A stretch of DNA of 64,000 nucleotides from Tubulanus polymorphus (lineage: Eukaryota > Animalia > Nemertea). The translations under genes were made by a program, and so were the position numbers. Location of the stretch: assembly GCF_964204645.1 (NCBI RefSeq), contig NC_134032.1, positions 3,744,175 to 3,808,174 of the forward strand. Direction: 5' to 3'. Below the pieces are notes generated by a model. It made no database searches, was not told the DNA's origin, and saw nothing but the letters and a program-made list of their open reading frames with translations. Numbering within the stretch: the stretch's first letter is position 1; each line of letters opens with the position of its first letter. Below are positions 1-39,423 of the stretch, in pieces.

Positions 1-40
1 AAATGAAAATAAATCTAAAATATTATTAATGGATTAAAAT

Positions 41-1129
41 ATGATGAAAAAAGAACAATATTTAAGAGATTTATATTATAACCCAGAAAGTGAAGTTTCA
101 TATTCAAGTGTTTCGGAATTATGGGATAAAATTAAATCTGATAATAGCAATATAAAATATAGTGAATTAAAATCATGGTTACAAAATCAACCCACATATC
201 AAATTCATAAAAAGATGGATAAAAAATATTTAACAAGAAAAGTAATGGTTTCATATATTGACCAACAATGGCAAGCTGATTTAATTGATATGAAAAACTT
301 AGAAGAATATAACAAAGGATATTTTTGGATACTAAATGTTATAGATATATTCAGTAGATACGCATGGAGTATCCCGATTAAAAATAAAACTGGTATAGAA
401 GTTACAAATTCTTTCAAATTAATATTTAAAGAAGCTATTCCAGATAAGATACAATTTGATGAAGGTAAGGAATTTTATAACAAACATTTTAAAAAACTAT
501 TAACTGATAACGATGTAGAATATTTTTCAACACATTCAGATAAAAAAGCATCTGTTATAGAAAGATTTAATAAAACATTGAAAACTAGAATGTGGAAATA
601 TTTCACCGCTAATGAAACATATAAATATATCGATGTGTTAGATGATTTAGTTAAAGGTTATAATAATTCTAAACATAGTTCTATAAATATGAAACCTATA
701 CAAGCTAGAAAAGAAGAAAATTCAGAAATAGTTTGGAATAATTTATATGGAGCATTTGTTACACATGATTTTGGAGAACCTAAATTTAAAATAGGACAAC
801 ATGTTAGAATTTCTAAATATCGAAAAACATTTTATAAAGGTTATACCCCTAATTTTACTGAAGAAATATTTAAAATTAAAAAGATAATATTAACTAAACC
901 ATTTGTTTATAAATTGTTTGATTTAAAAGATGAAGAAATATTAGGTTATTTTTATGAACAAGAATTATCATTAGTACCAAATCCAGATGAAATAGAATAC
1001 AAAATAGAAAAGGTATTGAAAACAAAAACTCTTAAAGGAAAAAAGTATTCTTTGGTGAAATATAAAGGATATGATGATAAATTTAATGAATGGATTTTAT
1101 CTAGTAAAATTAAAAGAATAAATGAATAA
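41..1129 (+). CDS. Polinton retroviral-type (RVE) integrase with C-terminal chromodomain
   Basis: DDE core WQADLIDM...IQFDEGKEF...VIERFNKTLK; chromo-like tail YKIEKVLK...LVKYKGYDDKFNEWI; intact 362 aa. Confidence 0.95.
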   Translation: MMKKEQYLRDLYYNPESEVSYSSVSELWDKIKSDNSNIKYSELKSWLQNQPTYQIHKKMDKKYLTRKVMVSYIDQQWQADLIDMKNLEEYNKGYFWILNVIDIFSRYAWSIPIKNKTGIEVTNSFKLIFKEAIPDKIQFDEGKEFYNKHFKKLLTDNDVEYFSTHSDKKASVIERFNKTLKTRMWKYFTANETYKYIDVLDDLVKGYNNSKHSSINMKPIQARKEENSEIVWNNLYGAFVTHDFGEPKFKIGQHVRISKYRKTFYKGYTPNFTEEIFKIKKIILTKPFVYKLFDLKDEEILGYFYEQELSLVPNPDEIEYKIEKVLKTKTLKGKKYSLVKYKGYDDKFNEWILSSKIKRINE

Positions 1130-1739
1130 AGATTTGTTTATATTTGAACCACATAATATGTTAATAACTGGAGTTACAAATTGTGGTAAAACACACTTCA
1201 TATTATATTTATTAGAAACTATTTATAAAAATCATTTTGATAATATAATATTATTCTGCCCAACTTATGAAATGAATGAAACGTATAATAGAGATATAGT
1301 TTTTAAAGATAAAAAGTTTATTATATTAAATTCTAAAACAGTGAAAGATAATTTAGATAATTGTATAAAAATTGCATTAGATATTTATAAAGGATCTAAT
1401 ACATTATTTATTATCGATGATTGCGCAAATTTACATGATTCAAAAGTTAGAGAAAGTGAGTTATGTTATTTAGCTTTCTCTGGTAGACATTTTGGGATAA
1501 CAACATGGGTTTTAAATCAGAAATATAATTCAATTGTGAAAGATTTTAGAGAGAATATAAGATTTCTAGTTTTATTCTACAACAAAGATAGAAAATCTAT
1601 GCAACAATCATTGGAAGAAAATCAACTTATACCTACTGAATTACATGATGAATATATGAATAAATTAAAGAATAATAAAGGTTCAAAATTACTTCTGAGA
1701 CTACAATTTCCATATGAATATAAATTTATAAAATCCTAA
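1122..1739 (+). CDS. A32/FtsK-like DNA packaging ATPase
   Basis: Walker A GVTNCGKT, Walker B LFIIDD, GRH motif; overlaps the integrase stop; starts at TAAATG. Confidence 0.92.
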   Translation: MNKDLFIFEPHNMLITGVTNCGKTHFILYLLETIYKNHFDNIILFCPTYEMNETYNRDIVFKDKKFIILNSKTVKDNLDNCIKIALDIYKGSNTLFIIDDCANLHDSKVRESELCYLAFSGRHFGITTWVLNQKYNSIVKDFRENIRFLVLFYNKDRKSMQQSLEENQLIPTELHDEYMNKLKNNKGSKLLLRLQFPYEYKFIKS

Positions 1740-1747
1740 TTCAAAAT

Positions 1748-2114
1748 ATTATAGAATTCACTGTATATTGATGGATGAGTGGATGAATTGGATGAATTGG
1801 ATGAGTGGATGAATGGATGAGTGTAATAATATATAATTTACATATGTTTTTTATTTTTAAAACAGTAAGAGTTTGATTTGAAGTTATTTTATCAATTTTA
1901 TATTATATTTAAATATTATTTTAATAATATATATATTGTGTTAAATTTAATAAAGAATATAAATATTATATTTATACTCATACTATTCTTCCAATTTATG
2001 TGTTAAAAAGTAAAATATATATATTATTACACTCATCCACTCTTCCACTCATCCAATTCATCCAACTCATCCAACTCATCCATTCATCCATCAATATACA
2101 GTGAATTCTATAAT
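1748..2114. repeat. Internal inverted-repeat module with TGGATGA(A/G)(T) iterons around an AT-rich spacer
   Basis: ATTATAGAATTCACTGTATATTGATGGATGA... (1748-1841) is the reverse complement of 2010-2114. It lies between the stops of the two convergent gene blocks. Confidence 0.9.
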
Positions 2115-2118
2115 CTTT

Positions 2119-3186
2119 TTAATTTTCATTTTCATATTTTTCTTTAAGCTTATTGTATTCTAAATATATATCCCTTTGCATTTTCATTGGTATAGGTCCT
2201 AAATGATTCCCGAGTTTATATTTCCTGAATGTTTCTCTTGAAAATATTTTTGGAATATAATTTTCGATTTCAGTTTTAGATGGATGTTTATTTAAAAATT
2301 CTCTAAAATCATCATATTTAAGTTCAAATAAGTTCATTGCATAACTTACATTTGGTTTAAAGTTATCTAACTTTTTCAATATGGTAATTATATCATTACT
2401 CAAGAAATAATCTATAAATGTTTTTCTATACCACCGATAATCTGATATATTCTTTTTATTAAATTTTGGATTTATAACTGTTGGATTTTCTATTACATTA
2501 TCTGTACCAATATGTTTAATTGAGTATTTATGATTCAATTGTTTATCATATATTACATATTCTTTACATTTTTCACACCAAGATTTAAATACTTGTATTG
2601 CATGGGCTGAATCATTTCCACCTTTTGTTTTTAATTTATAACGTTTTGCCCAATTAGCCTTTGTTATACATTCATTACAGAAGGCACAATAATTCTGATC
2701 CTCTTTGCATTTATCTTTATATATATTGGCATATGTTTTTACTAATTGTAAAATATGTTCATCTTTTTTGATGTGTAATAAATAATCATTGTAATTATCA
2801 AAATCTTCTTCACAATACATACATCTGATGTTATCTTTTGGTTGAACATTTGATTTTTCTATTTTAGGTTCAATATTATATTCTATTTTTGTTTCAATCT
2901 TATCATCATTCGATGTAGAAGGTATAACATTATCTTCTATTTTTGTTTCAATATTATTATCTATTTTTGTTTCAATATTATCTTCTATTTTTGTTTCAAT
3001 ATTATCTTCTATTTTTGTTTCAATATTATTATTACGTTCAATTAAATATTCTTTGTATTGATTTAATTCATTTAATAAAAATGTTCCAATATATTCATTT
3101 ATTCTTTTATAAGGTATTACATAATACAAATCATCATTGATTTCTTTATCAGCTTTGATTCTTTCATATACTTTACCTCCTTCCAT
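2119..3186 (-). CDS. Zinc-finger protein with KIEDNIET repeats, function unknown
   Basis: CMYC...HIKKDEH C2H2-like motif plus CAFC and CEKC...H motifs; intact 355 aa ORF starting at TAAATG. Confidence 0.75.
   Translation of the reverse strand: MEGGKVYERIKADKEINDDLYYVIPYKRINEYIGTFLLNELNQYKEYLIERNNNIETKIEDNIETKIEDNIETKIDNNIETKIEDNVIPSTSNDDKIETKIEYNIEPKIEKSNVQPKDNIRCMYCEEDFDNYNDYLLHIKKDEHILQLVKTYANIYKDKCKEDQNYCAFCNECITKANWAKRYKLKTKGGNDSAHAIQVFKSWCEKCKEYVIYDKQLNHKYSIKHIGTDNVIENPTVINPKFNKKNISDYRWYRKTFIDYFLSNDIITILKKLDNFKPNVSYAMNLFELKYDDFREFLNKHPSKTEIENYIPKIFSRETFRKYKLGNHLGPIPMKMQRDIYLEYNKLKEKYENEN
2882..3030. repeat. 24-bp coding tandem repeat
   Basis: Repeated TCTATTTTTGTTTCAATATTATCT units encode IETKIEDN in the minus-strand ORF. 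Confidence 0.85.
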
Positions 3187-3218
3187 TTATTATATATATT
3201 TTTATTAAAGTTAAAATT

Positions 3219-4466
3219 TTAATACATAACACTATCTAATTGTGAATTTACAATATTTAATTGCGCGTCAGATATAATATAAATGTGCATTTTAAAATTT
3301 TTGATTCCTTTATTCTTTGTCATGAATAATTGTATTCCATCTTTAGTGTTCTGTAGTTTTTTTCCAGAACCATGTAATAAGTTATCTTCAGTTGTTCTAA
3401 AATCTAACCATAATGCATATTTATTACCGGTATAATAATCAATTTGATTAATGTTACAATTTTCAAATGATTTTACTTTTTCATTCATAAAATGTTTTTT
3501 AATTTCTACCCATTGATCTATCATTCTCATTCCTTGACAAAATATTTTATTCGCTATTCCTTCGATAGTTATTTCTACTTTTGTTATTTCAGGATTATAA
3601 TAATTATCAACATTTATTGCGCCATTAGTATACGTTCCAATGGTAAAAAATATTAATATACCTTTAATAGATCTTCTAGGAAAGTTAATATTCTCATTAA
3701 TTATTTCATCATTTGCATTAATAGTTACAGTTTTAAATTTATCAATATAATCATATAATAATGAAAATCCTTGATTGTATTGAGTTTGAATTATACTTGA
3801 AATATTTTCATCAGTTACTGTATCATATTCTAAACATATATTCGATAATTTATAACTCATATCTTTATTAACGCTAGATAATACAATTTCATTTACAGGA
3901 GCAAATGTTATCTCAAATATAATATCTTCTTGAATTGCGTATTTATATAAAGGTGCATTATTATTTATCAATTCAAAGTCTAATGGAAGTTTATATTTGC
4001 TTCCATATATACTTTTTATCAATTTATCTACATCATTAGTTTATATTGCGCTATTAGCTTCTGATCTTAATTTATTTTGGTTTTCTGATTGAATTCCTTG
4101 AAATATCATATTATTTCTATTTTCTTTAGTTAACGATAAATCTTTATAATGTGAAAATAAATTATAATCATCTAATGAGAAAACTGTTTCTGGACCAATC
4201 TTTATTGTTAACTTTTTAATCAAATATCTTCCAACATTATCAACGACATAATTATTATTATTACCGATTACTTTTATATCAGCTGATAAATAAATACTAT
4301 TTGGAACGTAAAAAGTATTTTGTGTTAATCGAGGGATTCTAACGTATAAAGTTTCATCGGGATTAATATTTGAAGGGTTATGAGTAATTATATGATGTAA
4401 TCTTTCTGCTTTAATAGCATTAGATATTCTAGAAATCTTCGAAGGACTTATATAACTCCCACTCAT
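3219..4466 (-). pseudogene. Double jelly-roll major capsid protein interrupted by one in-frame stop
   Basis: ORFs 4041-4466 and 3219-4022 are in the same frame (TAA at 4041-4043, then six sense codons), about 415 aa joined. Motifs THNPS, VGRYLIKKL, PLDFE and LSNICLEYD match my recollection of invertebrate Polinton capsids; not searched. Confidence 0.8.
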
Positions 4467-4487
4467 TTATTTAACAAAAAAAATTAA

Positions 4488-5947
4488 TTATTTATTTTTT
4501 ATCATATTCACTAACCCAAAAATAATAGCACTTACAACTGTAATTAAAAATAAAATAATATGTTCAGCAGCAAAGTTAATAATGTTTCCTGCAGATTTCA
4601 ATATAAAACCAACAATTGAAGCAATAACTCCTGGCAATGCTGCAGCAGATTTTTTAGATAGTTCCCATAAATATTTTGCTAATTTCTTTAAACCATCTTT
4701 AACTTTATCTTGTATAGAATTATTGCCTGGAGGTTTATCTGGTTTATTTGGAGAAGGAGTAGATTTTAAAGCATTTGATATTGCTAAACCAATTGTTGTA
4801 AATAACATAGTTACAGCTGTTAGAATTGAAAGAACTGTTATTCCTTCAAACTTAAATAATAATTTTATTCTATCTTTCAATGATATGTCAGAATTTGGTT
4901 TTAGTATTAACTCTTTAACAACAACTTTTAATCTATTAATACAATAATCATATGATTTTAATAATAATTTCATTTTTTCTTTCTGAAATTCTATGTTATA
5001 TTCTAAATCATCAATTTATTTTTCTAAATATGCATTTCTTTTTTTAAATTCAATTTCTTCAATAACTTTAAATTCTCTATCTAATTTTAATTGTTCTAAT
5101 TCTTTTCTGGTGTCAAATAATTTATTTTCTAAAGGTTTAATTTTATTATATCTAATATGTTTTTCGCGAGCAATTTTATCGGCATCATTTCGTATACTTA
5201 TTATTTCTCTAATTGTTTTTTTAGAAAACATACTTAAAGCTTCTATTTCTTGATCTGTTGCATCAAGTAATCCATTCGGTAAAAGTTTTTCAGTTTGAAC
5301 TTCAGTGTTTGATTTAAGTTTACTAGTTTTGGAAGTTATATTCTGTTCAGAAGTTGTTTCTGTTTCTGGATTATCTTTGATTGTTTCAAATAATTTATTA
5401 ATTCTTTGTTTAAATACTCTTTCATTTTTAATAATTTCTTCTTGTGTTACATCTTCTATTTCATTACTATTACTTATTCTTTTAATTCTAGATAGTAATG
5501 AGTCAGACTTAAGCAAAGTTGATTTTGCTAATATTTTTTCTCCTTTTTTATAAGAGATATCAATATAATAATCATCTTTCAAATGATAATAATATTCACC
5601 ATCTAAAGATTTTAATTCTTTTACTAAAAGTCTGGCGCCTCTGGCATTTATATTATATCCAGAATCTTTAAATACACGTTGAAAATCATACATAAATTCA
5701 ATATTTTCTAAATTTTGTCTTGATAAACCTTGATTTTCATTTTCAGGAATTCAAATTCAAATTCATCTGTTGATGGGGCTTTAGAACCACTATCTGCTAA
5801 ATTAGAATTATATGCTGATTCATCATCATTATCAATATTAGTTTCATTAAGATTAGCGCCTGCATCATTATAATCATCATCAATATATCCTTCATTATTA
5901 TTTCCCATTTCTCCCATTTCATAATCTTCTCCACCTTCTACATCCAT
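4488..5947 (-). pseudogene. Acidic/coiled-coil protein with C-terminal hydrophobic and amphipathic helices, broken by a frameshift and a nonsense codon
   Basis: Three ORF-track pieces join via a 1-bp frameshift near 5750 (DEFEFE/IPENENQ) and an in-frame TAA at 5016-5018; C-terminus LPGVIASIVGFILK...ILFLITVVSAIIFGLV. Confidence 0.75.
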
Positions 5948-5963
5948 TTACATAATAAAAAAA

Positions 5964-7352
5964 TTAAAATTTAAAATATAATATTCCTCCGATTACAATT
6001 CCTATACAAGTTATAGCTAATTTAGTATTTTCATGGGATTTATTATCATCATTTAGTTTAATTATATCATGTTGAATTTTATCAGTTTTTATATTTTCTG
6101 ATGTATTGTAATCTTTTATTTTGGAATCATTAACCAATTTAATATTCTTAGTTTTAGTTTCAGTTGATTGAATATGTTTTTTATTTTTTTCACCTTCCAT
6201 TAATTTTGGAGCAGTAATAATCTTTTTATTTATATCATTTAATCCAAATGAATTATTTATTGTCGCAGTTTTAATTAGATTATTATAACCAATTATATTT
6301 CCCATCTTCAATACTAAATCATTAGAAATAATTAATAGATTAGGGCCTATACAATAATTAAGTCTTACATGAGATTCATCTAAATAATTTTGATATCTTA
6401 TAATGTTTTCTGGAATCGATCTATTTTTATCATTATGTATGGAATCTTCAAATAAAACTTTAAATTGTTTTTGTGTATCGAATGATGTATTCAAATTTCC
6501 AATTATCGGTGATCTTGTTTCAACTTGCGCACCTAAAATACAAATTAAATAAGTTCTAATAGATTGATTTATTCTTTCTATACCTGATTTAGTAAAACCT
6601 TCACTATTTTCTAAAATAAAATATACCCAACCATTATTGTTTTCTTGTTTTAAATTATCATAAAATTTCGGTAATTTATTGAAATTTAATGTTTCTAAAT
6701 CCTTTGTTTCTATTTTACCATAACCTAATTTATTATTATAGATATTATAAAAACTATTAGATGGTATGGGAAGTGCACAATATTCTGCAATCTTTTTAGG
6801 GCAAGGAAGTGATCTTATTGTTCCAATTTTTGTTCTAAAATCAGAATTATTTATATCTATATTAAATTCATTGCAAATTTTATAAAACTTAGATAAATTA
6901 ATATTATTATCTAATTCTTTGAAATACCTAGATCCTGGTAAAGCGCACTCTAATTCATTTAATATTATTCTGATTTGAAAGTATGTATGAAATCTAAAAA
7001 AACTTTGAATTAATTTATATTTAGAATTATTCAAATGATCATTCCAACTAATTCCACATCCTGTTGTTGCACAATAAACAGCAAAATTTAATTGATTCTG
7101 CCAATACTTCATATTAGATTTTAATAACCATTGTTTTTCATCTTTCAATTTTTTAAAATTAATTAAATATATATGAAATATATTTTCCATCTTTGCATTA
7201 AAATTATTAGTTTCAGTAACATAAATTTCTAAATTAGTTAATGAATCTAAAACTTCATTTCTATATGTAATATCTTTATTAAAATCTATTGCTGGAATAT
7301 TATATTTGATTGATTTATTATATTGGAAAGCTTTTGGAAAACTATCTACCAT
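5964..7352 (-). CDS. Polinton-associated protein of unknown function with C-terminal TM helix
   Basis: Intact 462 aa; WQNQLNFAVYCATTGCGIS motif; terminal LAITCIGIVIGGILYF. Confidence 0.8.
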   Translation of the reverse strand: MVDSFPKAFQYNKSIKYNIPAIDFNKDITYRNEVLDSLTNLEIYVTETNNFNAKMENIFHIYLINFKKLKDEKQWLLKSNMKYWQNQLNFAVYCATTGCGISWNDHLNNSKYKLIQSFFRFHTYFQIRIILNELECALPGSRYFKELDNNINLSKFYKICNEFNIDINNSDFRTKIGTIRSLPCPKKIAEYCALPIPSNSFYNIYNNKLGYGKIETKDLETLNFNKLPKFYDNLKQENNNGWVYFILENSEGFTKSGIERINQSIRTYLICILGAQVETRSPIIGNLNTSFDTQKQFKVLFEDSIHNDKNRSIPENIIRYQNYLDESHVRLNYCIGPNLLIISNDLVLKMGNIIGYNNLIKTATINNSFGLNDINKKIITAPKLMEGEKNKKHIQSTETKTKNIKLVNDSKIKDYNTSENIKTDKIQHDIIKLNDDNKSHENTKLAITCIGIVIGGILYFKF

Positions 7353-7368
7353 TTATATAATTAAAAAA

Positions 7369-7802
7369 TTAATAATTAACTAATTCTTTTAATAATTTAT
7401 CTTGTTCTTCAACTGTTATATGACCATTTAAACTTATTATATAATCTAGTGTGTTCTTTAATTCATTTATTTCTTTTATATTAGTTTTAATTTTTTCTTT
7501 ATTACTTTTTATATTTAATTTTGAACTTATACCGGTTAAACACTTGAACTTAATCCTAATACACCAATTGATATAGCTAAAGGTGTTAATGGACTGAATA
7601 TTGCTAAAAATGTTATTACAGAACTAATTGTAACCGAACCACTAATAATAAGATAATATATAATTTTACTTTTTAGATATTTTTTCTTTTTAACTTTTAA
7701 GTCACTTTCAAATTCTAATATTTGTTTTTCTAAATATGTTTTTAATTTAGTTTTATTTATATCATGAGGAATAATATCAATACTATCAACTTTATCTTCC
7801 AT
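7369..7802 (-). pseudogene. Two-TM plus coiled-coil protein with a 1-bp frameshift
   Basis: The ORF stops at 7536 in GTTTAA; adding one T continues it as LTGISSKLNIK...KELVNY to a stop at 7369-7371, filling the gap to the next gene. Confidence 0.7.
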
Positions 7803-7821
7803 TTATTTAGAATAAAAATTA

Positions 7822-8244
7822 CTAATTAGTAAACTTATAAGCAACAAATATAACAATAACTGTTCCACCTAAAATCCAAATTATTTCATATTTCTGTTGT
7901 TCTTTACTTGGGGTATAATAATCTGATAATTTAGGTTTGTATAGATGTAATTTTTCTTTATTTGTTACTGCGTTATATAAACTCATTGCATCATCAACTG
8001 ATTGAAAATCTCTATGTGAAATCTTCTGATCATATAATTCTTTATTGATGTAATCCATATAGTTTTGTCTCTTTTCTCTATATTCTTCTGCAGCTTTATT
8101 GTATTTCTCTAACGCTAAGTTATGTCTTCTTTGTTCTCCTAATGAACTATTTGTATCAATATGTTTAAATAAATAACCACCACCAGTAAATGCTAAAGCG
8201 TTAACAATTGCCGATCCTATAATAGTTATAATTGCAGAAGCCAT
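7822..8244 (-). CDS. Small membrane protein, putative virion component
   Basis: Hydrophobic N-terminus (MASAIITIIGSAIVNALAFTGGGYLF), RRHNLALE helix, C-terminal TM segment. Confidence 0.8.
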   Translation of the reverse strand: MASAIITIIGSAIVNALAFTGGGYLFKHIDTNSSLGEQRRHNLALEKYNKAAEEYREKRQNYMDYINKELYDQKISHRDFQSVDDAMSLYNAVTNKEKLHLYKPKLSDYYTPSKEQQKYEIIWILGGTVIVIFVAYKFTN

Positions 8245-8269
8245 TTATTTAGCAAAAAAAATTATGTAT

Positions 8270-8491
8270 TTATATGGGAGGAATATATTTTTGTTTTTCT
8301 AAATAATCAATAGTTAAATTAGATAAAGTAACTGCTAATGTTAATTTTAGAATATCATTGATATCAAATCTATCAACATTAACACTTCCCATTTTGAATA
8401 CTTTTTTTAATACCATTGAATAACCAACCGTTCCAACTGATAGTAAGGCACCATTATATAATCCAGTTATTATCCACTTATTATCACTCAT
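8270..8491 (-). CDS. Small hydrophobic protein
   Basis: 73 aa with two hydrophobic segments; TAAATG start; tightly packed with neighbours. Confidence 0.75.
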   Translation of the reverse strand: MSDNKWIITGLYNGALLSVGTVGYSMVLKKVFKMGSVNVDRFDINDILKLTLAVTLSNLTIDYLEKQKYIPPI

Positions 8492-8851
8492 TTATTTATC
8501 AAAAAAATTACTATCATCAAAATATTTAGTTAACTTATTTATGATTAATTCAACATTTATTTCATTACTAGTTTTATGATTATCATATATTTTGGATAAT
8601 ATGTTTTTGATATCATCGATGATAAAATCTTCATCTAATTCATAAAATCTTAAAGATTCTCTAATTAAATTAGTAATCTTTTCTACATTTAAAGTTTCTT
8701 TATCAATTGTTGTTTCATACTCAAATGTTGTTTCATTAGAAAATGTAATATTTTTGATATGTGTAATTACATCATTCATGTTAAATGTCATTTCTTTCTC
8801 ACGTTTAAAATCAAATCCAAAACATATACTCGGTCCAACAGTTATATTCAT
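8492..8851 (-). CDS. Hypothetical protein
   Basis: 119 aa; TAAATG start; its stop abuts the next ATG. Confidence 0.7.
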   Translation of the reverse strand: MNITVGPSICFGFDFKREKEMTFNMNDVITHIKNITFSNETTFEYETTIDKETLNVEKITNLIRESLRFYELDEDFIIDDIKNILSKIYDNHKTSNEINVELIINKLTKYFDDSNFFDK

Positions 8852-8867
8852 TTATATAAGTGAAAAA

Positions 8868-9626
8868 TTACTCTCTACATCTTATTACTAATTCATAAAT
8901 TACAGGAAAGTTATTCAAATCAATTAAATATCCATTATGATTTCTTATTTCTAATCTAAAATTATTAAAATGAGGAATGCATGGTTTGAAATCACATTCT
9001 GTTAAATTATAATTTATTTGCGTTCCAAATTCTTTAACATTTTTTAATGGTAAAATATTTAATATACTAGAATTACATGTTGTATCTTTAGTTGCTTCAA
9101 ATGTTTTTGTTGGGTCAATTAAATTGCAATAAATATAAAAATGTGTAAAAGGTATTATATTTGAAATACCGTCTACGTTTACTGTAACAACATCTGGTTC
9201 AATTCCTAGCAATTTAGCTATAGGTTTTTTTACCATAAATGCATGTTGACTTTCATCAAATACCTTTATTTTAATTCTATTTGAGCTATCACTTTTTATA
9301 AATCTTATTAAAAGTTTATCATCTTTTCTAATTTTCAACCGTGCTCTACGATTAATTTCTTGAGATAATGTTTCTAAATTATATAATCCTGGTCTTAGAA
9401 ATAGATGAAACCATTTATTTATATTTCTAATATGAATTAAAAAAGTATTATGTTCAATAGTTTTATTCGATATATTATAAAAAGAATTACATAAACTTAT
9501 ATTTACTAATTTTAAATCTACACAATTCTTGAATTCTCTATCTAATTGTACTAATAAATTATGAGATTTATAATTTGTAAGTTTTCTAGAATCAACAAAT
9601 ATTCTGTATTCTTTTAATTCTACCAT
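8868..9626 (-). CDS. Minor capsid protein (penton, single jelly-roll)
   Basis: IFVDS...NSFYNIS...PGLY...YIYCNLI...LEIRNHNGYLIDLNNFPVIYEL follows the Polinton/virophage penton pattern. Confidence 0.8.
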   Translation of the reverse strand: MVELKEYRIFVDSRKLTNYKSHNLLVQLDREFKNCVDLKLVNISLCNSFYNISNKTIEHNTFLIHIRNINKWFHLFLRPGLYNLETLSQEINRRARLKIRKDDKLLIRFIKSDSSNRIKIKVFDESQHAFMVKKPIAKLLGIEPDVVTVNVDGISNIIPFTHFYIYCNLIDPTKTFEATKDTTCNSSILNILPLKNVKEFGTQINYNLTECDFKPCIPHFNNFRLEIRNHNGYLIDLNNFPVIYELVIRCRE

Positions 9627-9643
9627 TTATTTTACATATTTTC

Positions 9644-9985
9644 TTATTCGAAATCTATTTCATGGTGCCCTTTTTCATTCTTACCTTTATATATGAAATA
9701 GAAATCTCCAGAACATAATTCTTCTAAATCTTCACTTGATAATCTATGAAATCTATCTGGTAAATAAGTTCTGAATTTATATTTATTTCCTTTTAATCCT
9801 TCATATTCTAAATGAATTACTAATTTATCTCCATAGTTATTAGTAACTGTAACAATATTTGTAATTAGATATTTCTTATGGATTGTTAATTCTGTTAACT
9901 TTTTGAATTTATAATCTACAGATTTTACATTTGTTATATCTTTAATTCTATCTAAGAATTCACTGTGTACTTGTTTACTCTCCAT
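9644..9985 (-). CDS. Small beta-rich protein beside PolB, possible OB-fold ssDNA-binding protein
   Basis: 113 aa; KKLTEL...YGDKLVIHL...YLPDRF; function inferred from position and pattern only. Confidence 0.55.
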   Translation of the reverse strand: MESKQVHSEFLDRIKDITNVKSVDYKFKKLTELTIHKKYLITNIVTVTNNYGDKLVIHLEYEGLKGNKYKFRTYLPDRFHRLSSEDLEELCSGDFYFIYKGKNEKGHHEIDFE

Positions 9986-10013
9986 TTATTATACAAATTT
10001 TTATTGAAATTGA

Positions 10014-13000
10014 TTAACACGTTAGAATCCTTTTCATAATCTCATTTTCTTTTGTTTCTTCTCTTTTGAATTTTATATATTCATCTAAATTGCAACCATA
10101 GGCGACTGTGTGGATTCCATCATCTAAAATATATCTTTTATCATCAAATGGGTTTAGACTTATCTTCTCTATCTCTTCAATATACATTTCATGATCTTCA
10201 GATCTTAAACATTTCATTTTATGTTTTCTAACTTCTTCATTAAATATACAATTGATATAATCTTTGAAATGAATATTCTTTTCAACAACGCTTCTGGTAA
10301 TTCCTTTTAACTTTTTAGCTTCATGAGTTTTAGTTTTATAACTATACATTTTAGATCTAATACCAATGAACTCTATCATTTCTTCACCACCTAATTCATC
10401 CTTAAACTTCCCAGGAACTTTTTTATTATTATTGGTAAACAATTCATGATTTTTAGGATAATTACTGAAATCAAAATGATGTTTTAATGTTTTTAAATCA
10501 TCTGTTATGTTATCAGTTTTTATCTTTAATATGTAAGAATCTGTATCAAAATATAAGATTTCTATATGTTTTTCTCCAAAATGAGGTTGTAATACGTTAT
10601 AGTAAAATTGATACATCAATAGCTTTGAAATTTCTAAAACTGCAGCTCCAACATAAATCGGTTTATTAAATTTCATTGAAGTTCTTCTCATCTTAACTGC
10701 TGCTAAATTTTCATCAAATATTCTGTTACCTATAAACTTATGATATGATTGTAAATGCCTTATCCTTTTACCATTACTAACTAACTCAATATCATTTCTA
10801 TTTCTAATATTTTCACAAGTCTTACCATAGAACGCATTGTTCATTAACTTAAAAAAATCTTTTTCAAAATCAGTTTTAGCTTTAGTTCTCTGTGTAGTAT
10901 TAAAATCTATATATTTTTCTAACCATTTAGATTGACTGAATGAAATATATCTATGTACTTTTTTTAATATCATTCCTTGATTCAAATAGAATTTTAACAT
11001 TATATAATGTACTACATAATTATATTTATCTTCTTGAGTTACCATTAATTTTTCAGTATGAATATGATTATCGGGTTTAATTCTTTTTTGATAATTTGAT
11101 AATTCTTCATGTTTAACAGTTTTATGTTCGGGACAATAAGCTAGATTTCTAGATTTGAATTTAATATTTTCAGGGTATTCTAAATCTACAACGAAGAAGT
11201 AACCAATATCTGAATCATCTGCAATATCTAGGATTCTTTTCTTCCAATCAAATTTATCAATTTGTAAAACTTCAGTTATTTCAAACATCCCATAAGGTTG
11301 TGGTTCCATCATTGCCCAACCATAAAGATTATTTGCATCTATGTATAATAATTTATATCCAGGATTATCATTTACATTGAAATATCTATCACCCAATACA
11401 CCTGAAACACCTCCTCTTATAGATTTTTCAAATAATAGTAATTGATCTATATTTGTTAACAAATCCATTTTTATATCTGTAAATTTTAATCCACAATCCC
11501 ATGTTAATCCTGGTGATGAATAACAATGACAAGGATCAATATTGAAATATTTTAGGTTTACATCTCTAAACCTTTCGAATATATCGGTTAATAATAATAC
11601 ATCTGATTTTAAATATAAATCTACTAATTGCCCATGATTTTCTATTTTGAAATGATTCCAAATATTCAATGTTCTATCATAGACTTCATCTTTAACATAT
11701 TCATTTTTTAATTCATCATAAAATTGTTCTTTCAATAATTCAGTTATTTTAAAATCATTATGATTTTTATAGAAAGAATATGGAATCGCTCCTTTATATC
11801 TCATTAATTGAAAATCATCATTATTTGGGTAATATTCTTTTAATATTTGTAATTCATCATCAACTAATGATTTTGATAAGTTATCTAATGAACTATTTAA
11901 AAATCTATATGAATCTATAAATCTTAGACAACCAAATTGGAATGATATATAATTCTCAGATGTTTTAGCTAACATTCTAAATCTATAAGTTGGTATTTTA
12001 TCTTTTGATCTATTTGAATTTAATATTTCTATTTCATTATTGATTTCTTCTATTTTATGACATAACTGTTTGATATATAAATGTGCATCATATCCTGATA
12101 GGTTATGAAATATAACTGGTATAAAGTTAATTTTCTTAGCTTGTAAGTTACAATTCTCATGTGCCGCGCCTCTAAACTTTCCATTCAAATGATCATGATC
12201 TCTTACCTTTTTATCTTTATAATTAAATATCTTTTCACAATAATAACATTTATCTGCAAACGCAAATACTTCTTTATCTTCTTCTGTCATTATAATTTCT
12301 ATATTTGTATTCAATAATTTACTAAATCTTATTTCATATTCAATTAATAAGTCACAAAAATGATTGATAACATTTTCATTTCTATAATTATAATATTCAC
12401 TTTCGATTAGTTCTGGATAATCAGATTTAATATATAACCCGAAAGCTGCAGCTGATTGATGAATCTTTTTAATTGTATTTGTTATTGGTGGTTCATCTGA
12501 AAAATCATTTTCATTAGAATTTAATTTCTTTCTTTTATAATATATATCTTTTCTATCTTTATCTGTTAATTCTTTATTTAATGATTCAAAATCTCCATAT
12601 ATTACAAATGGTACTTTATTTTTGTAATCATATTTATTGAATTCTAATATTTTATCTTTTTCATTTGGTAAAACTAATTTACAATAATCATGATTATCAC
12701 ATAGTTGTTTATGATTTAATAATGTACTTTCATTACTAAATTTATGTAAACATTTTCTACATAGATATATTTTATTATGGTGATCACTTTCTGTTCTAAA
12801 AAATAAATCTATTTGTTTAATCCACATATAATGATTCTCATAATATAGTATATCTATAACATCATTTGAATCATAATCTTTTGATAGATATAAAGGTTCT
12901 AATGTATAATGTTTTATATTGTTACCTTTTGTATTTGGTAATTTGATTAAATCAAATACATTTATCTTTATATTATTATCTCTTTCTATTTTTGGAATAT

Positions 13001-14040
13001 TTTTAATTCTAACAGGATACTTATCTATCTTATAATTACTTTCAAATGGTTTATAATGAGTTAATCTACAAATATTATAAGTTGCAGGATGTAAACAACT
13101 TATTATAGTCCATAGAAAACATTTATCATCTTCATTTTGTATGTTTATAACAGCATTAGTTTTTAAATGGTAGTTTGATATAACTCGATGCTTCAATATC
13201 TGGTTCTTTATAATATGATAAATTATTTTCATCTATTGGTTTTGATTTAGTTAACTTATTATATTTTGTGTTATAAACATGTAAAGTTATAAATATTGTC
13301 TCATCAAATATTAAACCAGATCCTTCAAAATATTTCTCTTCTATTTTAGTTTTTACTTCATTATAACATTTATCTAATTTATCATCTATATGTTGTTTAG
13401 ATATAATATGTTGTGAATGAGAATTTATATTATATATTGGTTTATCTTCAGATTTTATAAACTTTACTTTAACTGATATACTAATTTTTGGATATTCTAC
13501 GTTTGTAATTATTTTTATTATTTCTTTCATATTTTCTAAATGTTTTTTATTTTCTTCTAATGTTTTTCCTTTATGAAATTTAAACTCGATAGCTGCTGGA
13601 CCAATATCACTTTTAAATGCTTCGGTTATCTCTATATCTTTTTTATTATCTAATGAATTAATATAATTTCTTACATCTTCCATATATGGTCTTTTATTGT
13701 TTAATTTATTTTTTATTCTTTTAATTGTCTTCTGTTTCTTATCGTTATCATTATCAAAATAATCTTCACCTAAAATATCATTATTCTTATTTCTAATATG
13801 ACTTATAGATTTTAAATGTTCTTTATAATATCTTTTATCACTGAATGATTGATTACATGTATCACATTTGTATGTTTCTTTTTCATTCTTTAATTCTTCT
13901 AATTTAGATTCTAATATATCATCTTTATATTCTAGTTTCAATTTATTCTCTAAATGTGTTCTAGTTTTATTGTGTCTTGCTTTTTGGGATTTATCTATAT
14001 CGATATTACATGTTGGGCAGTAGTACTTATTTGCTTCCAT
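10014..14040 (-). pseudogene. Protein-primed family B DNA polymerase (ZnF, terminal-protein-like, vOTU-like, Exo with EndoVII insert, Pol), split by a 1-bp frameshift near 13160
   Basis: ExoI YGDFES, ExoII HNLSGYD, Pol motifs DANNLYG, KLMNNAFYGK and YFDTDS. Removing one A from TTTAAAAACTAAT fuses SSYIKLPFK to TNAVINIQNEDDKCF, giving about 1341 aa. Confidence 0.92.
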
Positions 14041-14122
14041 TTTAATACTATATTTTTTATTAAAATTGATTTTAGAAGTTCAATGATTTAAATGTTATTC
14101 ATATATATATGAATATTTTAAG

Positions 14123-14389
14123 AGTAATAGGGGTAATAGGCTTTCGGGTTAAAGGTTGAACGGGCGGGTGAGTAAAAATGAAAAACATAAAAATAATTAC
14201 AATTTCTACTTGAATTAGGAGTGAAACTCATAAAAATGAAAAATAAATTCGAGCGTGTGAGAATTTATTTTTCATTTTTATGAGTTTCGCGAGTAATTCA
14301 AGTAGAAATTGTTATTATTTTTATGTTTTGCATTTTTTACGAGCTCGACCGTTCGACCTTTGATTCGAAAGCCTATTACCCCTATTACT
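14123..14389. repeat. Terminal imperfect palindrome (267-bp hairpin) of element A
   Basis: AGTAATAGGGGTAATAGGCTTTCG...CGAAAGCCTATTACCCCTATTACT; loop GAGCGTGTGA at 14251-14260. Confidence 0.95.
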
Positions 14390-14891: not shown

Positions 14892-15842
14892 ATGGTTTTC
14901 GTCAATGTCACCTTCTTGCAACCAATCGGACGCCCTTACCAATCCTACTTCGCTCTGAAATCGATTGTACACATGTCTGGTCCGAATAGAACAGTGGCGC
15001 TGATCACTTTCCCGATCATGTTCATTCTAGGTACGTTCGGCAACACGGCCAGTTTCCTGGTGATGAGTAGCCGAAGATTCAGGCGATTTTCGTACGCGAA
15101 CTACTTGATGGTTTTGTCCATTGCAGATTTATTACTGACCATCAGTATGTCCGGTATGCCGTTGTGGGAGTACGCGTTGAGAAGAGTGGATTTCTCCAGT
15201 CTCGGACAGTGTTTAGCTTACGAATTCGTATTCAAATTTGCGTTTTCCTGGAGCACGACTCTTATAGTTTTTATTACGGTGGAAAGAGTACTAGTTGTCG
15301 TTTTTCCGTTCACGTCGCGTGTCATATGCACGGTAAAATGTTCTCGCCGCATCATGTTAGTAATGGTTGTTCCAAATTTCCTAGTCGCCAGTCACACGTT
15401 TTTCGGTATGCGTTTTTCCGACAAGCTGAAATGTCACTATTACAGTTTCCGCTTCCATAAACAGATGTACTTTTACCTGAACGTATTTTTATACGTCGGC
15501 CCAAGTGTGCTGCTGATCGTTTGTAATTTGGTAATCATTATTTTCATGCGACGCGGATTAAAAGTCGGGGAGACCGGGCGAAAAACGGCTAAAGCCCGTC
15601 GTACAACCATAATGCTGATAACGGTATCTTCGACCTTCGTGGTTACCACATTGCCAAACACGATCACGTCTTTTCTTCCGATTCCCGAACATACCGTCGA
15701 TTATTTCTATACAATTTTCACGATGGTTACGACGTTGAATTACTCGTTAAATTTCTATATCTATCTATTACTGGGGTCTGAAGTCCGCGTGTTCGTAACG
15801 GAGAAGATTACCTGCAGAACCGACGCGAAAATTGCTCGGTAA
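14892..15842 (+). CDS. Intronless class A GPCR (peptide-receptor/chemoreceptor-like)
   Basis: Seven hydrophobic segments; GTFGN, LSIADL, TVERV, TLPN, NYSLNFYIY; host-like base composition. Confidence 0.9.
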   Translation: MVFVNVTFLQPIGRPYQSYFALKSIVHMSGPNRTVALITFPIMFILGTFGNTASFLVMSSRRFRRFSYANYLMVLSIADLLLTISMSGMPLWEYALRRVDFSSLGQCLAYEFVFKFAFSWSTTLIVFITVERVLVVVFPFTSRVICTVKCSRRIMLVMVVPNFLVASHTFFGMRFSDKLKCHYYSFRFHKQMYFYLNVFLYVGPSVLLIVCNLVIIIFMRRGLKVGETGRKTAKARRTTIMLITVSSTFVVTTLPNTITSFLPIPEHTVDYFYTIFTMVTTLNYSLNFYIYLLLGSEVRVFVTEKITCRTDAKIAR

Positions 15843-17320: not shown

Positions 17321-17639
17321 GATTGGTCGCTCCACTTCGCTACCGCTCCGCTCCGCGACCAATTGATTTATTTACAATACACAAATTCATATAATCAAAT
17401 ATATTCAAATAATAATAATTATTCTATTATTCAACTGAAATACACACGGTTATGAAAATATATTATAGTTTTAAATTACTTTTAATGTTTTGTTTTTAAT
17501 GAGCTCGACCATTCAACCTTTAACCCGAAAGCCCATTACCCCTATTACTCTTAAAATATTCATATAAATGAATAACATTTAAATTGACAGATTATTCAAT
17601 ATAAAAGTGTAAGCTCTTATAGGATATATATATAAATAG

Positions 17640-18250
17640 TTATTTTATAAATTTATATTCATATGGAAATTGTAGTCTCAGTAATAATTTTGAACCTTTA
17701 TTATTCTTTAATTTATTCATATATTCATCATATAATTCAGTAGGTATAATTTGATTTTCTTCCAATGATTGTTGCATAGATTTTCTATCTTTATTGTAGA
17801 ATAAAACTAGAAATCTTATATTCTCCCTAAAGTCTTTAACAATTGAATTATGTTTTTGATTTAAAACCCATGTTGTTATCCCAAAATGTCTTCCAGAGAA
17901 AGCTAAATAACATAACTCACTTTCTCTAACTTTTGAATCATGTTAATTTGCGCAATCATCTACAATGAATAATGTATTTGATCCTTTATAAGTATCAATT
18001 GCTATTTTTATACAATTATCTAAATTTTCTTTTACTGTTTTAGGGTCTAATATAATAAACTTTTTTATCTTAACTATATATCTATTATATGTTTTATTCA
18101 TTTCACAAGTAGGGCAGAAAATATTATATTATCAAAATGATTCTTATAAATAGTTTCTAACAAGTCTAATATGAAATGTGTTTTACCACAGTTTGTTACA
18201 CCAGTAACTAACATATTATGCGGTTCAAATATAAATAAATCTTTATTCAT
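17640..18250 (-). pseudogene. Packaging ATPase pseudogene
   Basis: Reverse-complement homolog of 1122-1739 with a frameshift near 18120 and a TAA near 17944. Confidence 0.9.
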
Positions 18251-19332
18251 TTATTCTTTTAATTTTACTAGATAAAATCCATTCATTAAATTTATCATCG
18301 TATCCTTTATATTTCACCAAAGAATACTTTTTTCCTTTAAGAGTTTTTGTTTTCAATACTTTTCTATTTTGTATTCTATTTCCTCTGGATTTGGTACAAG
18401 TGATAATTCTTGTTCATAGAAATAACCTAATATTTCTTCACCTTTTAGATCTTCTAATTTATAAACAAATGGTTTAGTTAATATTATCTTTTTAATCTTG
18501 AATATTTCTTCAGTAAAATTTGGAGTATAACCTTTATAAAATGTTTTTCTATATTTAGATATTCTTACGTGTTGTCTTATTTTAAATCTAGGTTCTCGGA
18601 AATCATGTGTAACAAACGCTCCATATAAATTATTCCAAAATATTTCCGAATTATCTTCTTTTTTAGCTTGTATAGGTTTCATATTTATAGAACTATGTTT
18701 AGAATTATTATAACTTTTCACTAAATCATCTAACACATCGATATATTTATATGTTTCATTAGCAGTAAAATATTTCCACATTCTAGTTTTCAATGTTTTA
18801 TTAAATCTTTCTATAATAGATGCTTTTTTATCTGAATGTGTTGAAAAATAATCTACATCGTTATCAGATAATAGTTTTTTGAAATGTTTGTTATAAAATT
18901 CCTTACCTTCATCAAATTGTATCTTATCTGGAATAGCTTCTTTAAATATTGATTTAAAAGCATTTGTTACTTCTATACCAGTTTTATTTTTGATTGGAAT
19001 TGACCATGCGTATCGACTGAATATGTCTATAACATTCAGTATCCAGAAATATCCTTTGTTGTATTCTTCTAAGTTCTTCATGTCAATTAAATCTGCTTGC
19101 CAATGTTGATCGATATATGAAACCATAACTTTTCTTGTTAAATAAGTTTTATCCATTTTCTTGTGTATTTGATATGTTGGTTGATTTTGTAACCATGGTT
19201 TTATTCACTATATTTTATATAACCATTTTTCTTATCAGATTTAATTTTATTCCATAATTCTGAAATACTAGAATGTGATACTTCACTTTCTGGGTTATAA
19301 TATAAATCTCTTAAATATTGTTCTTTTTTCAT
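18243..19332 (-). pseudogene. Polinton integrase pseudogene
   Basis: Near-identical protein to 41-1129 (ORF 18353-19156) with frameshifts near 19205 and 18357. Confidence 0.92.
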
Positions 19333-19338
19333 CTGATT

Positions 19339-19711
19339 TTAATCCATTAATAATAATTTAGATTTAGTTTCAATGGTTTTAGGATTTGACTTATTTTCTG
19401 GTATGATAGGTTTATTATCATTGGAATCATTATTGTTATAATCAGATATATACTTATATTTATATATTACACCAGAGAATATAATAACTGTTACTAATCC
19501 AATTGTAATATATAAGTAATTATTACTTCCAGCATTAGAAGAATTAGATGGATTATTATTTGATTCAATATCAGATAAAGTCTGTGATTCATTTATATCA
19601 GTTAATTTTTTTTTTCTTAGCTTTTTTTAATTCTGAAGATCTTTTACCTAATTCTCTTGCCCATTTAATTTGTTTCTCTGATCTAGCCTTTTTCTTAACG
19701 CCATCACTCAT
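19339..19711 (-). pseudogene. Small basic protein with a TM helix, frameshifted in an A-run
   Basis: MSDGVKKKARSEKQIKWARELGKRS...YITIGLVTVIIFSG...KLLLMD*; its 3' end matches window positions 1-37 of element A. Confidence 0.65.
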
Positions 19712-20302
19712 TTATTTTAGTTAATTTTTGTTCTGATTCATTTTCTATTTCACTGTTTGGTTGTAGAACAGCGTCATCTGTTTCGTCCTTACCTGATTTA
19801 TATTCCATAGGCTTGATGTTCGAAACAGTTATGACACCAGTAGAAATTAATGTCATAACCGATCCTAATTGAAATGAAGCATAACCAACCCATTTTTGTA
19901 ATTCAGTCATAACTAAGTAGTCATTTTTCAAATCACTATATAATTTATTTTCATCATCAATTGGTATTAACTGGTTACATAACATTTGACAATACCATCT
20001 GAAATAGAATCATTTATTCGGGATAATCTTGCCTCTTCATAAATCTTAAAATATTTCATTACTTTATCTGGTTTCATAACATCTAATTCTTGAAAAGTAA
20101 TAGTCTTAGTTAAAAACTCTTTAGTTTTTCCACCGGCAATCAATAGTTCTAGATGATGCTTACAATATAAATAGTATTCATAATCTATATTACAATTAAC
20201 TTGAGCACAATTAGTTACAACTGTATCTTTATTATCACTTATACCCAAATCATCTAATGTCTTTTCAATATCAATACTATTCGTATTAGATTTCTTTGAC
20301 AT
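19704..20302 (-). pseudogene. Polinton hypothetical protein split by a frameshift
   Basis: Overlapping ORFs 19967-20302 and 19704-19985 join near 19985; TAAATG start. Confidence 0.65.
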
Positions 20303-20648
20303 TTATATTAGAGAAATTTATTAAGAAAAATATCATAAGTATTCTTCAAATGATACCAGTATCTCTTTAGATTAATACTAGCTTAGTTAAAGGTAAAGAA
20401 TTTTAGTATTAGTTATTGTTTTTTTAGTATTTTTTATTTGTGATATAAAGTATTCTTTTTTGAAAAGAAAATATTAAAAATATAATAGAATTCACTAGCT
20501 AGTTGAAGTTATTGTTTTTTAATATTTTTTATTTAAAATCTATTATTCTTTAACCACTCATTAAAGACTCAACGTATTGTTCATTATTTGGATCATTGTT
20601 CCAAATTGCAAATTTCTTTGCCTTTGTTAACTGTTCTAAATATAACTG

Positions 20649-21212
20649 TTAATCTAGTTTATTAGATTTAATTATGTTTTCCTTCTTTTCTAAAGGTCTT
20701 AAATTCTTCCAATTCCAAACAAGTTTTTTATTGTATTCATCATTCATGTTAAATTTAGAAATCGGCAACACGTGATCAATATGGCAATAATCCCCATAAT
20801 TATCTATATTCATTTTATCATCGAATTGAAATATAATCCATGATTTGAGAAATTCATCTGTATAACACAATAAATTAGATAGTGTTTCTGAATGTGTTTC
20901 TTTGTTGAATAATTGTGTTAATCTAGATCTTAAGCATTGTTTCGATCTAAAATTAAGATCTGTTTGATATCTTTCTCTCATGTATTCTGCCATATAATAA
21001 TTATAATGTTCTATATTATCTTCTCGGTATTGTTTGGTATATAGTTTAAAACGAGTTTTACAACAATATTGAAAACCATCTTTGCTAATCTTACGCTTAC
21101 TAAATTCTGTTAATGATTTATCTAATTCACATTTAGAACACTTCTTGTAATATATATTTATAACACCAGTGTTATTTGTAATATTTATAGTTTGTGGTTG
21201 TTCTGGTTCCAT
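20649..21212 (-). CDS. HNH endonuclease with N-terminal Cys cluster, of the type common in large DNA viruses
   Basis: KKCSKC...CCK, then HIDHVLP...WKNLRPLEKKENIIKSNK. The frame continues past the stop to about 20551, so the stop may be premature. Confidence 0.8.
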   Translation of the reverse strand: MEPEQPQTINITNNTGVINIYYKKCSKCELDKSLTEFSKRKISKDGFQYCCKTRFKLYTKQYREDNIEHYNYYMAEYMRERYQTDLNFRSKQCLRSRLTQLFNKETHSETLSNLLCYTDEFLKSWIIFQFDDKMNIDNYGDYCHIDHVLPISKFNMNDEYNKKLVWNWKNLRPLEKKENIIKSNKLD

Positions 21213-21329
21213 TTATTATACGTATTTTTTACTAAATTGGTTAATATTTTAGAATCCTCTTCCATTTCTTCGACCAACGTCATCCTTTTTCATTCCTCGC
21301 TGCTTTTGATAAGTTTTTTCGATTCCCTG

Positions 21330-21890
21330 ATATCTAAATAATACCACTGGGCGAAACTGCTCTTATAGGAGCGTTTTTGCTTAATGCGCATGCGTTAATC
21401 ATAATTATATATTCATTCTATAAATTCTGTAAAATAGAAACAACATATGCGTTACATGCGTCACATGCGGCCATTGATGTCCGGTTTTGCTTAATGCACA
21501 TGTGTTAATCATAATAGAAACAACCGACATGAAATATCTAAATAATACCACTGGGCAAACCGCTCTTATAGGAGCGTTTTTACTTAATGCGCATGCGTTA
21601 ATCATAATTATATATTCATTCTGTAAATTCTGTAAAATAGAAACGACCGACATAAAATATCAAAACGTGTTCGCATTAGGCAAAACCGCTCTTATAGGAG
21701 CGTTTTTGCTTAATGCGCATGCGCTAATCCAAATTATATATTCATTCTGTAAAATAGAAACAACTGAACATAGAAAATTCAAACGCATGTGCACTAGGCA
21801 AAACCGCTCTTATAGGAGCGTTTTTGATCAATGCGCATGCGCTAATCCTAATTATATATTCATTCTGAATAGAAACGACCGAACATAAAA
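21330..21890. repeat. Tandem array of about 120-200 bp units
   Basis: Four copies of GCTCTTATAGGAGCGTTTTT...AATGCGCATGCG plus one partial copy. Confidence 0.9.
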
Positions 21891-22429
21891 ATTCACCAAT
21901 CAGATTTACACAATACATTATACAAGTTGTTCGGCCGTTTCTTCCAATACATCATTTGATTTCTATAAATACAATTTATAATTACAAACATTTTTTCAAT
22001 TGCTGGTAAATATTTAACTACATCAACAAATGTTAAACTTAATCATTGGAGTCTTAATGTTTTTGAAATTCTTATATAGTTTCTTCGTCGATCTTTTGGC
22101 GATTCTTGTGTTTCTTGTGCTAATTTCTATTGGTTCGATATCCATTGCTGTTGATTCCTCAGTCAGAAAGAGTATCTTGAGTTTCTCTATCACTTCTTGA
22201 TGCGTATGGCGTTTTATTAATCTAAAAGATATTAGCGGTAACTCTAGCTATCTAAAAGATATACTAAATACACTTAAATATATCTAAAGGTTTCATATTT
22301 ATTAGCCCTAATAACTTACAAAAACAGTACTTACATTTAGATTTTAGAATTGTAAACTATAAACTCCTAATTTCGTTTCGAGAGATAGAATATCCTGAGC
22401 ACAATGTTACAGCGTCTGTTCATTTCCGG

Positions 22430-22570
22430 GGCGATTTCTAGAATGAACACGCCGTTGATTATTACACGTCATCTGGTTCCGGCACACCTTTCTAGAATAT
22501 TCTACATGTTTCTGATTATGACATGTCATCTCTATTCAGAGTTCCAGCACACCTCTCTAGAATTTTCTCT
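22430..22570. promoter_or_regulatory. Cluster of heat-shock-element-like motifs
   Basis: TTCTAGAATATTC (22490-22502, perfect TTCnnGAAnnTTC), TTCTAGAA near 22436, CTCTAGAATTTTC near 22555. Confidence 0.5.
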
Positions 22571-37974: not shown

Positions 37975-38018
37975 ATATTCAAAATAATATATTTCAAATT
38001 ACTTTTTTTCTTAAATAA

Positions 38019-39353: not shown

Positions 39354-39423
<70 letters not shown>

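Follow-up and report, generated by a model that had tools for sequence, protein, structure and literature searches.

TAAATG start sites with a fixed upstream element in a ribbon-worm Maverick/Polinton lineage: likely promoters for the RNA polymerase of a large helper DNA virus

A stretch of 64,000 nucleotides from the ribbon worm Tubulanus polymorphus (assembly GCF_964204645.1, contig NC_134032.1, positions 3,744,175 to 3,808,174; hereafter the window, with positions counted from its first letter) carries the right part of an integrated Maverick/Polinton, element 1, in which nearly every gene starts within the motif TAAATG. The likely role of these sites is as promoters that are served not by host RNA polymerase II (Pol II) but by the RNA polymerase that a large DNA virus brings into the same cell, a reading to which we give a probability of about 65%. 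The observations on which it is based are the motif, a fixed element upstream of it, conservation among related Mavericks, a shared register with chordopoxvirus starts, and the fact that the part of the element inside the window shows no recognisable gene for an RNA polymerase or a TATA-binding protein (TBP).

The motif is concentrated at start codons. A first-pass annotation of the window had listed 16 ATGs lying in TAAATG, and all 16 do so, with the DNA polymerase gene (PolB, start at 14040) in TAAAATG. In element 1, TAAATG is found at 11 of 17 open reading frame (ORF) starts, compared with 46 of 583 ATGs overall (8%) and 12 of 148 starts of spurious ORFs. When the upstream 25 nt were shuffled 20,000 times, on average 1.6 of the 17 starts fell in the motif, and never more than 8. 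Comparison with relatives identifies the ORFs starting at 3860, 4973 and 5693, which lack the motif, as internal pieces of broken genes, and the ORF at 13232 is probably an internal piece of the broken PolB. Because four of the six exceptions are such pieces, the motif is present at 11 of 13 true starts, and the remaining two, those of the integrase (TAAAAT-ATG) and of PolB, have TAAA within 7 nt.

The setting proposed by the first-pass annotation, an integrated Polinton of an invertebrate, is borne out by the Pfam gene set, a flanking host gene for a G protein-coupled receptor (GPCR) and read junctions with many flanks. Element 1 is a Maverick/Polinton, with a protein-primed PolB (pPolB), an rve integrase, an A32 ATPase and a double jelly-roll capsid protein. 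In one DNA read run, reads at its right end (14389) run into many different flanks, and most element bins are about 200–1200 deep versus 5–15 in flanking DNA, corresponding to about 50 element copies. Its features are given below, the starts being called T-class or A-class according to whether a run of T or of A occupies positions −17 to −13 relative to the ATG.

1..14389: element 1, Maverick/Polinton provirus, right part; about 22% GC, left end outside the window
41..1129, plus strand: rve integrase (Pfam PF00665) with a sub-threshold chromodomain match; start TAAAAT-ATG
1122..1739, plus strand: A32-like packaging ATPase (Pfam PF04665); TAAATG start within the integrase 3' end
1730..2132: long imperfect palindrome with TGGATGAA-like repeats, separating convergent genes
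2119..3186, minus strand: 355-aa protein with Cys/His clusters; A-class start
3184..3212, minus strand: candidate A-class promoter of the 3186 gene; A-run at −17 to −13, T at −12, TAAATG
3219..4466, minus strand: major capsid protein gene, broken (ORFs 4041–4466 and 3219–3860); 70–76% identity to intact relatives
4464..4486, minus strand: candidate T-class promoter of the capsid gene
4488..5947, minus strand: Maverick gene, conserved, encoding hydrophobic segments; broken (three ORFs), T-class start at 5947
5964..7352, minus strand: conserved 462-aa Maverick protein; T-class start, nearest upstream ORF stop 183 nt away
7372..7802, minus strand: small membrane-protein gene, broken; T-class start
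7822..8244, minus strand: conserved 140-aa hydrophobic protein; T-class start
8270..8491, minus strand: conserved 73-aa hydrophobic protein; T-class start, T-run within upstream coding sequence
8492..8851, minus strand: 119-aa protein; T-class start
8868..9626, minus strand: presumed minor capsid (penton) protein, a label taken from the first-pass annotation; A-class start
9644..9985, minus strand: predicted OB-fold single-stranded-DNA-binding protein (SSB); A-class start
10014..14040, minus strand: protein-primed-type PolB (Pfam PF03175, E 2.7e-16) with N-terminal zinc finger and endonuclease VII insert, in two overlapping ORFs; A-class start, TAAAATG
14038..14068, minus strand: candidate A-class promoter of PolB
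14123..14389: right terminus of element 1, a 267-nt imperfect hairpin

Several of these assignments draw on relatives or on structure prediction. The integrase start agrees with residue 1 of its relatives. The intact capsid protein of the relative L006, 74% identical, is predicted to form a double jelly-roll and matches double jelly-roll capsids at E of about 1e-13, with virophage capsids not favoured over those of iridoviruses or PBCV-1 among the fold matches. The SSB prediction (pLDDT 81) has a phage SSB as its second match (E 8.6e-5) and, as its top PDB row, a weak match to PRD1 P12 (E 7e-3); the atlas matches of the 3186 protein are zinc fingers, all below 0.9. No capsid maturation cysteine protease was detected by Pfam in the visible right part of element 1. 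The element's proteins showed no similarity to the fetched poxvirus or iridovirus loci, and scans of viral contigs with ATPase and capsid alignments returned no match.

The use of TAAATG at start codons extends well beyond this copy. Searches with the ATPase and PolB recovered 83 loci, 68 of which were grouped together with element 1; the other 15, fragmented or falling outside the groups, were left out (L001–L003, L036, L038, L041, L044–L049, L066, L067 and L079). In 31 motif-positive loci, the window included, TAAATG is found at 87 of 99 full-length core genes over a range of 20–45% GC, compared with 0/17 core genes in six AT-rich sister loci (mean 28% GC), 0/9 in L021 and 3/83 in 31 GC-rich loci. 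The contrast between the motif-positive loci and the AT-rich sisters means that AT content does not explain the motif. Neither is it a Kozak context, since position −3 is T in 91/102 genes versus a purine in 82/93 genes of the GC-rich relatives; T at −3 is also contrary to both host GPCR starts (n = 2).

Coupling of stop and start codons fares no better. Among 128 TAAATG starts, 52 are divergent from the neighbouring gene and only 7, that at 8491 among them, abut an upstream stop. The triplet preceding the ATG is TAA in 125 cases, TAG in 2 and TGA in 0, and true stops in two GC-richer clades comprise 30 TAA, 14 TGA and 10 TAG. Both strands carry TAAATG in 24 of 28 divergent pairs, with the two ATGs 4 nt apart in two of them, and ATPase codons are fixed for an antisense TAAATG in 12/12 clade-B loci, compared with 1/25 GC-rich and 0/6 AT-rich TATA loci. 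The motif thus stems from neither AT content nor Kozak context nor stop-start coupling, and on these counts the first-pass interpretation is supported.

TAAATG also starts 3/3 ORFs on the L139 contig, which encodes an ATPase-like protein and a 500-aa ORF and looks virophage-like, 4/6 ORFs on L086, a Polinton-like contig within a bacterial bin, and 7/7 ORFs of the Polinton L003, whose ATPase is very divergent. Another contig labelled as a bacterial bin contains L084, a GC-rich Maverick that includes a tandem duplication; it is probably animal DNA. The close relative L006 carries a deoxynucleoside kinase gene (10340–10981) with a T-class start and with no clue to its donor.

Upstream of the motif, the split between a T-run and an A-run at −17 to −13 is real in the window's clade and is position-specific: the variance is 2.6–2.8 times binomial at −17 to −12 and at most 1.4 times in windows starting outside −18 to −14. 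The first-pass annotation had described TAATTTTT about 12–20 nt upstream of the genes in the block 4466–8851, and it is indeed present in all seven, although with a tighter spacing, fixed at −19/−20. The A-rich box noted there for 14040, 9985, 3186, 21212 and 37397 is present as well. The penton gene at 9626, however, which had been assigned to neither class, belongs to the A-class, with four A in −17 to −13 and an L006 ortholog with a full A-box. A T at −12 occurs in 40/43 near-clade starts (21/21 gene families) versus 34/85 non-start TAAATG sites, and in 13/16 and 40/52 starts of two further clades.

The classes are in part retained among orthologs and, in the window, tend to go with function. 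The T-run persists in 4/4 capsid orthologs and the A-run in 5/5 orthologs of 3186 and 9626, those of 3186 in L004 and L008 retaining the A-box. In the window, the T-class comprises the capsid and hydrophobic proteins, and the A-class PolB, SSB, an HNH nuclease, the 3186 protein and the presumed penton; the association of class with function has a Fisher p of 0.01, calculated post hoc and with functions partly inferred. Genomic copies covering two promoters differ at 24 sites in 316 nt, none of them in TAAATG or at −12, a comparison of no power as about one would be expected there. An early-type AAA..TGAAA box was found in none of 110 upstream regions. The T-run was also considered as an early terminator of the upstream gene and rejected, being fixed relative to the ATG, inside coding sequence at 8491 and, at 7352, far from a stop. 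T-runs are about 30–50% depleted in near-clade coding strands; AATAAA is depleted in no group and hence does not discriminate among them.

Poxviruses provide a described counterpart. In vaccinia, late promoters combine TAAAT(G) with a T that is conserved ten nucleotides upstream, and intermediate promoters lack this T and have TAAA and, at a greater distance, an AT-rich stretch (PMC11980589); the initiator, from −1 to +3, is read by the polymerase itself (PMC12917281). In a control set of 36 chordopoxvirus stretches, three of them with identity confirmed by Pfam, TAAATG is found at 337/725 ORF starts, with T at −13 and −12 in 68% and 62%. The T profile of the element correlates with the chordopoxvirus profile most strongly at offset 0 (r 0.73–0.79), so that the fixed upstream T is in register with poxvirus starts. 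The first-pass equation of the two classes with late and intermediate promoters fared less well: the T-class profile correlates with late (r 0.45) rather than intermediate (0.08) poxvirus orthologs, and the A-class profile with intermediate (0.44) more than late (0.28), but these labels describe a trend only, as the control classifier misassigned most of the poxvirus genes themselves.

A number of observations weigh against the reading of these sites as helper promoters, or against its poxvirus-specific form. The groups of loci were drawn after the counts and the tree were known, and relatives share ancestry, so that the counts are not independent. Enrichment of T at −12 is absent from clade C, the fourth of the clades (8/16), clade B lacks the T/A bimodality, and the SSB and HNH genes change class between orthologs. 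The late/intermediate classifier was right for only 4 of 12 poxvirus genes when each gene was left out in turn, and a matrix-based call between poxvirus and iridovirus did no better than shuffles (null 0.55–0.88). Nor is TAAATG specific to poxviruses: 18 invertebrate-iridovirus-like loci (L202–L219, assigned by gene content) start 84/230 ORFs (37%) at the motif, with a T profile that is also in register with the element (r 0.53–0.67). The form AATAAATG, found at 59/61 unique starts of these loci, recurs at 8/11 window starts, compared with 7/51 in clade B. Finally, a self-encoded factor may exist, the left part of the element being out of the window and several ORFs unannotated, and helper dependence, starts within AAA and poly(A) leaders are proposed, as set out below, from sequence.

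These points bear on the identity of a helper. Because the iridovirus-like loci also use TAAATG, it need not be a poxvirus, and the poxvirus-like helper proposed in the first-pass annotation is not established by the motif. The iridovirus-like loci have T at −12 in 29/61 unique starts; a literature search found no paper on their AATAAATG start form. The lineage as a whole fits poxviruses better than iridoviruses, although the window copy alone does not decide. A poxvirus-like helper is only tentatively proposed, at somewhat less than even odds; an iridovirus-like one appears unlikely, and a helper from elsewhere among the Nucleocytoviricota a little more so.

A different start signal is found in sister Mavericks (L016–L021 and L028) that share the gene set of the TAAATG elements. 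In these seven loci, the six AT-rich ones and L021, TATA lies within 20 nt of the ATG in 24 of 26 genes, and shuffles reached at most 12/17 for the AT-rich six and 5/9 for L021. A Pol II TATA box so near the ATG would put the transcription start inside coding sequence. L021 also shows a TTTTCT-like box about 10 nt upstream, resembling asfarvirus late promoters. In the ATPase tree the TAAATG and TATA lineages form an open fork in which their order is not resolved. African swine fever virus (PMC7458399) and pacmanvirus (PMC11788076) both use TATA as their late initiator. Such lineage-specific promoters parallel those of endogenous virophage types, which differ in promoter motif; induction was confined to the type whose motif is the late one of the helper (PMC10945749).

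How such promoters might operate can be sketched by analogy with vaccinia. Transcription would start inside the AAA, so that the anti-Kozak T at −3 would not be transcribed, and slippage would add a 5' poly(A) leader. The provirus would remain silent until the cell is infected by a helper whose post-replicative initiators are of the TAAA(T) type, after which the element would replicate with its own PolB and SSB, package itself and reintegrate as mavirus does. Genes with an A-box (PolB, SSB, the HNH nuclease, 3186 and the presumed penton) would come on before those with a T-run, an order for which, given helper transcription, we consider the odds even.

The alternative that survives best, though an improbable one, is that the element encodes an unrecognised initiation factor by which host Pol II is steered to a promoter of the element's own, linked to TAAATG. 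Element 1 extends to the left beyond the window, the 355-aa A-class protein starting at 3186 has no assigned function, and an ORF of the TATA-type locus L021 (6543–7052) has a weak Pfam match to poxvirus VLTF3, at E 6e-4 below the cut-off. Nevertheless, a Pfam scan of 31 window ORFs and of ORFs from TAAATG-positive loci (59 ORFs scanned overall) detected no domain of TBP, TFIIB, VLTF or an RNA polymerase, and one candidate factor turned out to be SSB-like. Divergent starts 4–6 nt apart and the T at −3 are also more easily reconciled with initiation at the codon than with a Pol II transcript bearing a normal leader.

Somewhat less probable again is a relic origin, in which the promoters date from a free virus that depended on a helper and the present copies spread in the nucleus without one. 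The capsid gene, PolB and two other genes are broken in the window copy, and the roughly 50-fold read depth over single-copy DNA reflects genomic amplification. Against this, the motif is retained in many diverged relatives with intact genes, and the A-class promoters of PolB and SSB carry it too, with no second promoter type found. That TAAATG serves translation, as a site of stop-start reinitiation, an in-frame stop guard or an AT-rich Kozak variant, is very improbable, for although TAA is an in-frame stop and a few starts such as 8491 abut an upstream one, TAG or TGA occupies that triplet in only 2/127 cases, the many divergent starts and the T at −3 run contrary to it, and a fixed T at −12 corresponds to no known feature of translation.

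The remaining features of the window can be placed beside element 1.

14892..15842, plus strand: host GPCR gene next to element 1; its protein is 90% identical to one of Tubulanus polymorphus, which points to a nemertean host
17322..23263, minus strand: element 2, a decayed copy with an internal deletion and inverted ends; 403-nt terminal hairpin at 22861–23263
36685..41078: element 3, a non-autonomous derivative of palindromic structure; 90-nt hairpins at both ends, 6-bp duplication of the target

Element 2 has TAAATG starts at 18250, 19711, 20302 and 21212, of which 19711 opens a broken gene, and element 3 at 37397, 38019 and 40060. The element ends (14123–14389, 22861–23263, 36685–36774 and 40990–41078) are long imperfect hairpins, each with a ATTTAAAT palindrome on the element side; a literature search found no description of such long hairpin ends in Polintons. 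Internal palindromes with TGGATGAA-like repeats lie between convergent genes at 1730–2132 and about 38569–39502, possibly as a terminator or replication origin. Four to five copies of a repeat of about 120 nt adjoin a remnant of the PolB 3' end in element 2 (21321–21890), a decayed integrase fragment of retrotransposon type lies between elements 1 and 2 (16074–17000), and a second single-exon host GPCR gene is found at 44012–44962.

Among known systems, element 1 shares with other Mavericks/Polintons (Polintoviricetes, "adintoviruses"; PMC8502044, bioRxiv 10.64898/2026.06.19.733378) the pPolB, rve integrase, A32 ATPase and double jelly-roll capsid, as well as multiple copies in an animal genome; inverted ends, also typical of the family, are seen in elements 2 and 3, and the 6-bp target duplication in element 3. 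Element 1 differs in its near-universal TAAATG, its long terminal hairpins and the lack of a visible adenain-type protease in the part seen. The mavirus-like virophages of Cafeteria (PMC10945749) likewise integrate, encode an rve integrase and pPolB, and carry the late promoter motif of the helper, with motifs differing by type; they have a protist host, a capsid of the Lavidaviridae lineage, a known helper and demonstrated induction, whereas the element here has an animal host and possibly two promoter classes. With vaccinia intermediate and late promoters (PMC11980589, PMC12917281, PMC4542343) it has in common TAAA(T) over the ATG, an upstream T about 10 nt away and T-rich versus A-rich upstream variants, but its spacing is more rigid and T at −12 occurs in both classes, whereas vaccinia intermediate promoters are stated to lack it (PMC11980589).

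Two further systems approach it from other directions. Entomopoxvirus-associated Polinton-like viruses (PMC11296320) are also Polinton-like elements of invertebrates and proposed parasites of poxviruses; that proposal is based on co-sequencing with occlusion bodies, in a paper where the word "promoter" does not occur, and the viruses have a protease and lack an rve integrase. The linear virus-like pGKL elements of yeast (PMC6211774) use a TAAAN initiator that leads to 5' poly(A) leaders and a poxvirus-related polymerase; they encode that RNA polymerase themselves and have an ATNTGA upstream element, whereas no polymerase gene was found in the element here. A literature search, with most subscription papers and supplements outside it, found no report of such promoters in animal Polintons, and none of a nemertean large DNA virus whose initiators are of the TAAAT type. 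One study reports a herpesvirus-like insert in a ribbon worm and no poxvirus there (bioRxiv 2025.04.19.649669), and according to another no virion of animal Mavericks has been observed (bioRxiv 10.64898/2026.06.19.733378).

A promoter grammar that holds across a lineage of a known element family would represent a further form of the virophage-type strategy. It bears on the question of how animal Mavericks, which have capsids and no RNA polymerase, express their genes, and a promoter for a helper polymerase makes that expression testable by mapping of 5' ends and with the published in vitro system for vaccinia intermediate transcription. A broader and doubtful proposition is that a widespread branch of animal Mavericks consists of integrated, virophage-like parasites whose promoters name their helpers, the TAAATG lineages acting in two steps on the polymerase of a poxvirus-like ribbon-worm virus yet to be discovered and their sisters having switched to an asfarvirus-type TATA. 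On that proposition the promoters of Polintons would preserve, as fossils do, traces of large viruses not yet seen in invertebrates, and the elements might provide animals with a defence that viruses induce. Were helper transcription correct, the virophage lifestyle would extend to animals outside insects and a large DNA virus with TAAAT-type initiators would be predicted in a probable nemertean host.

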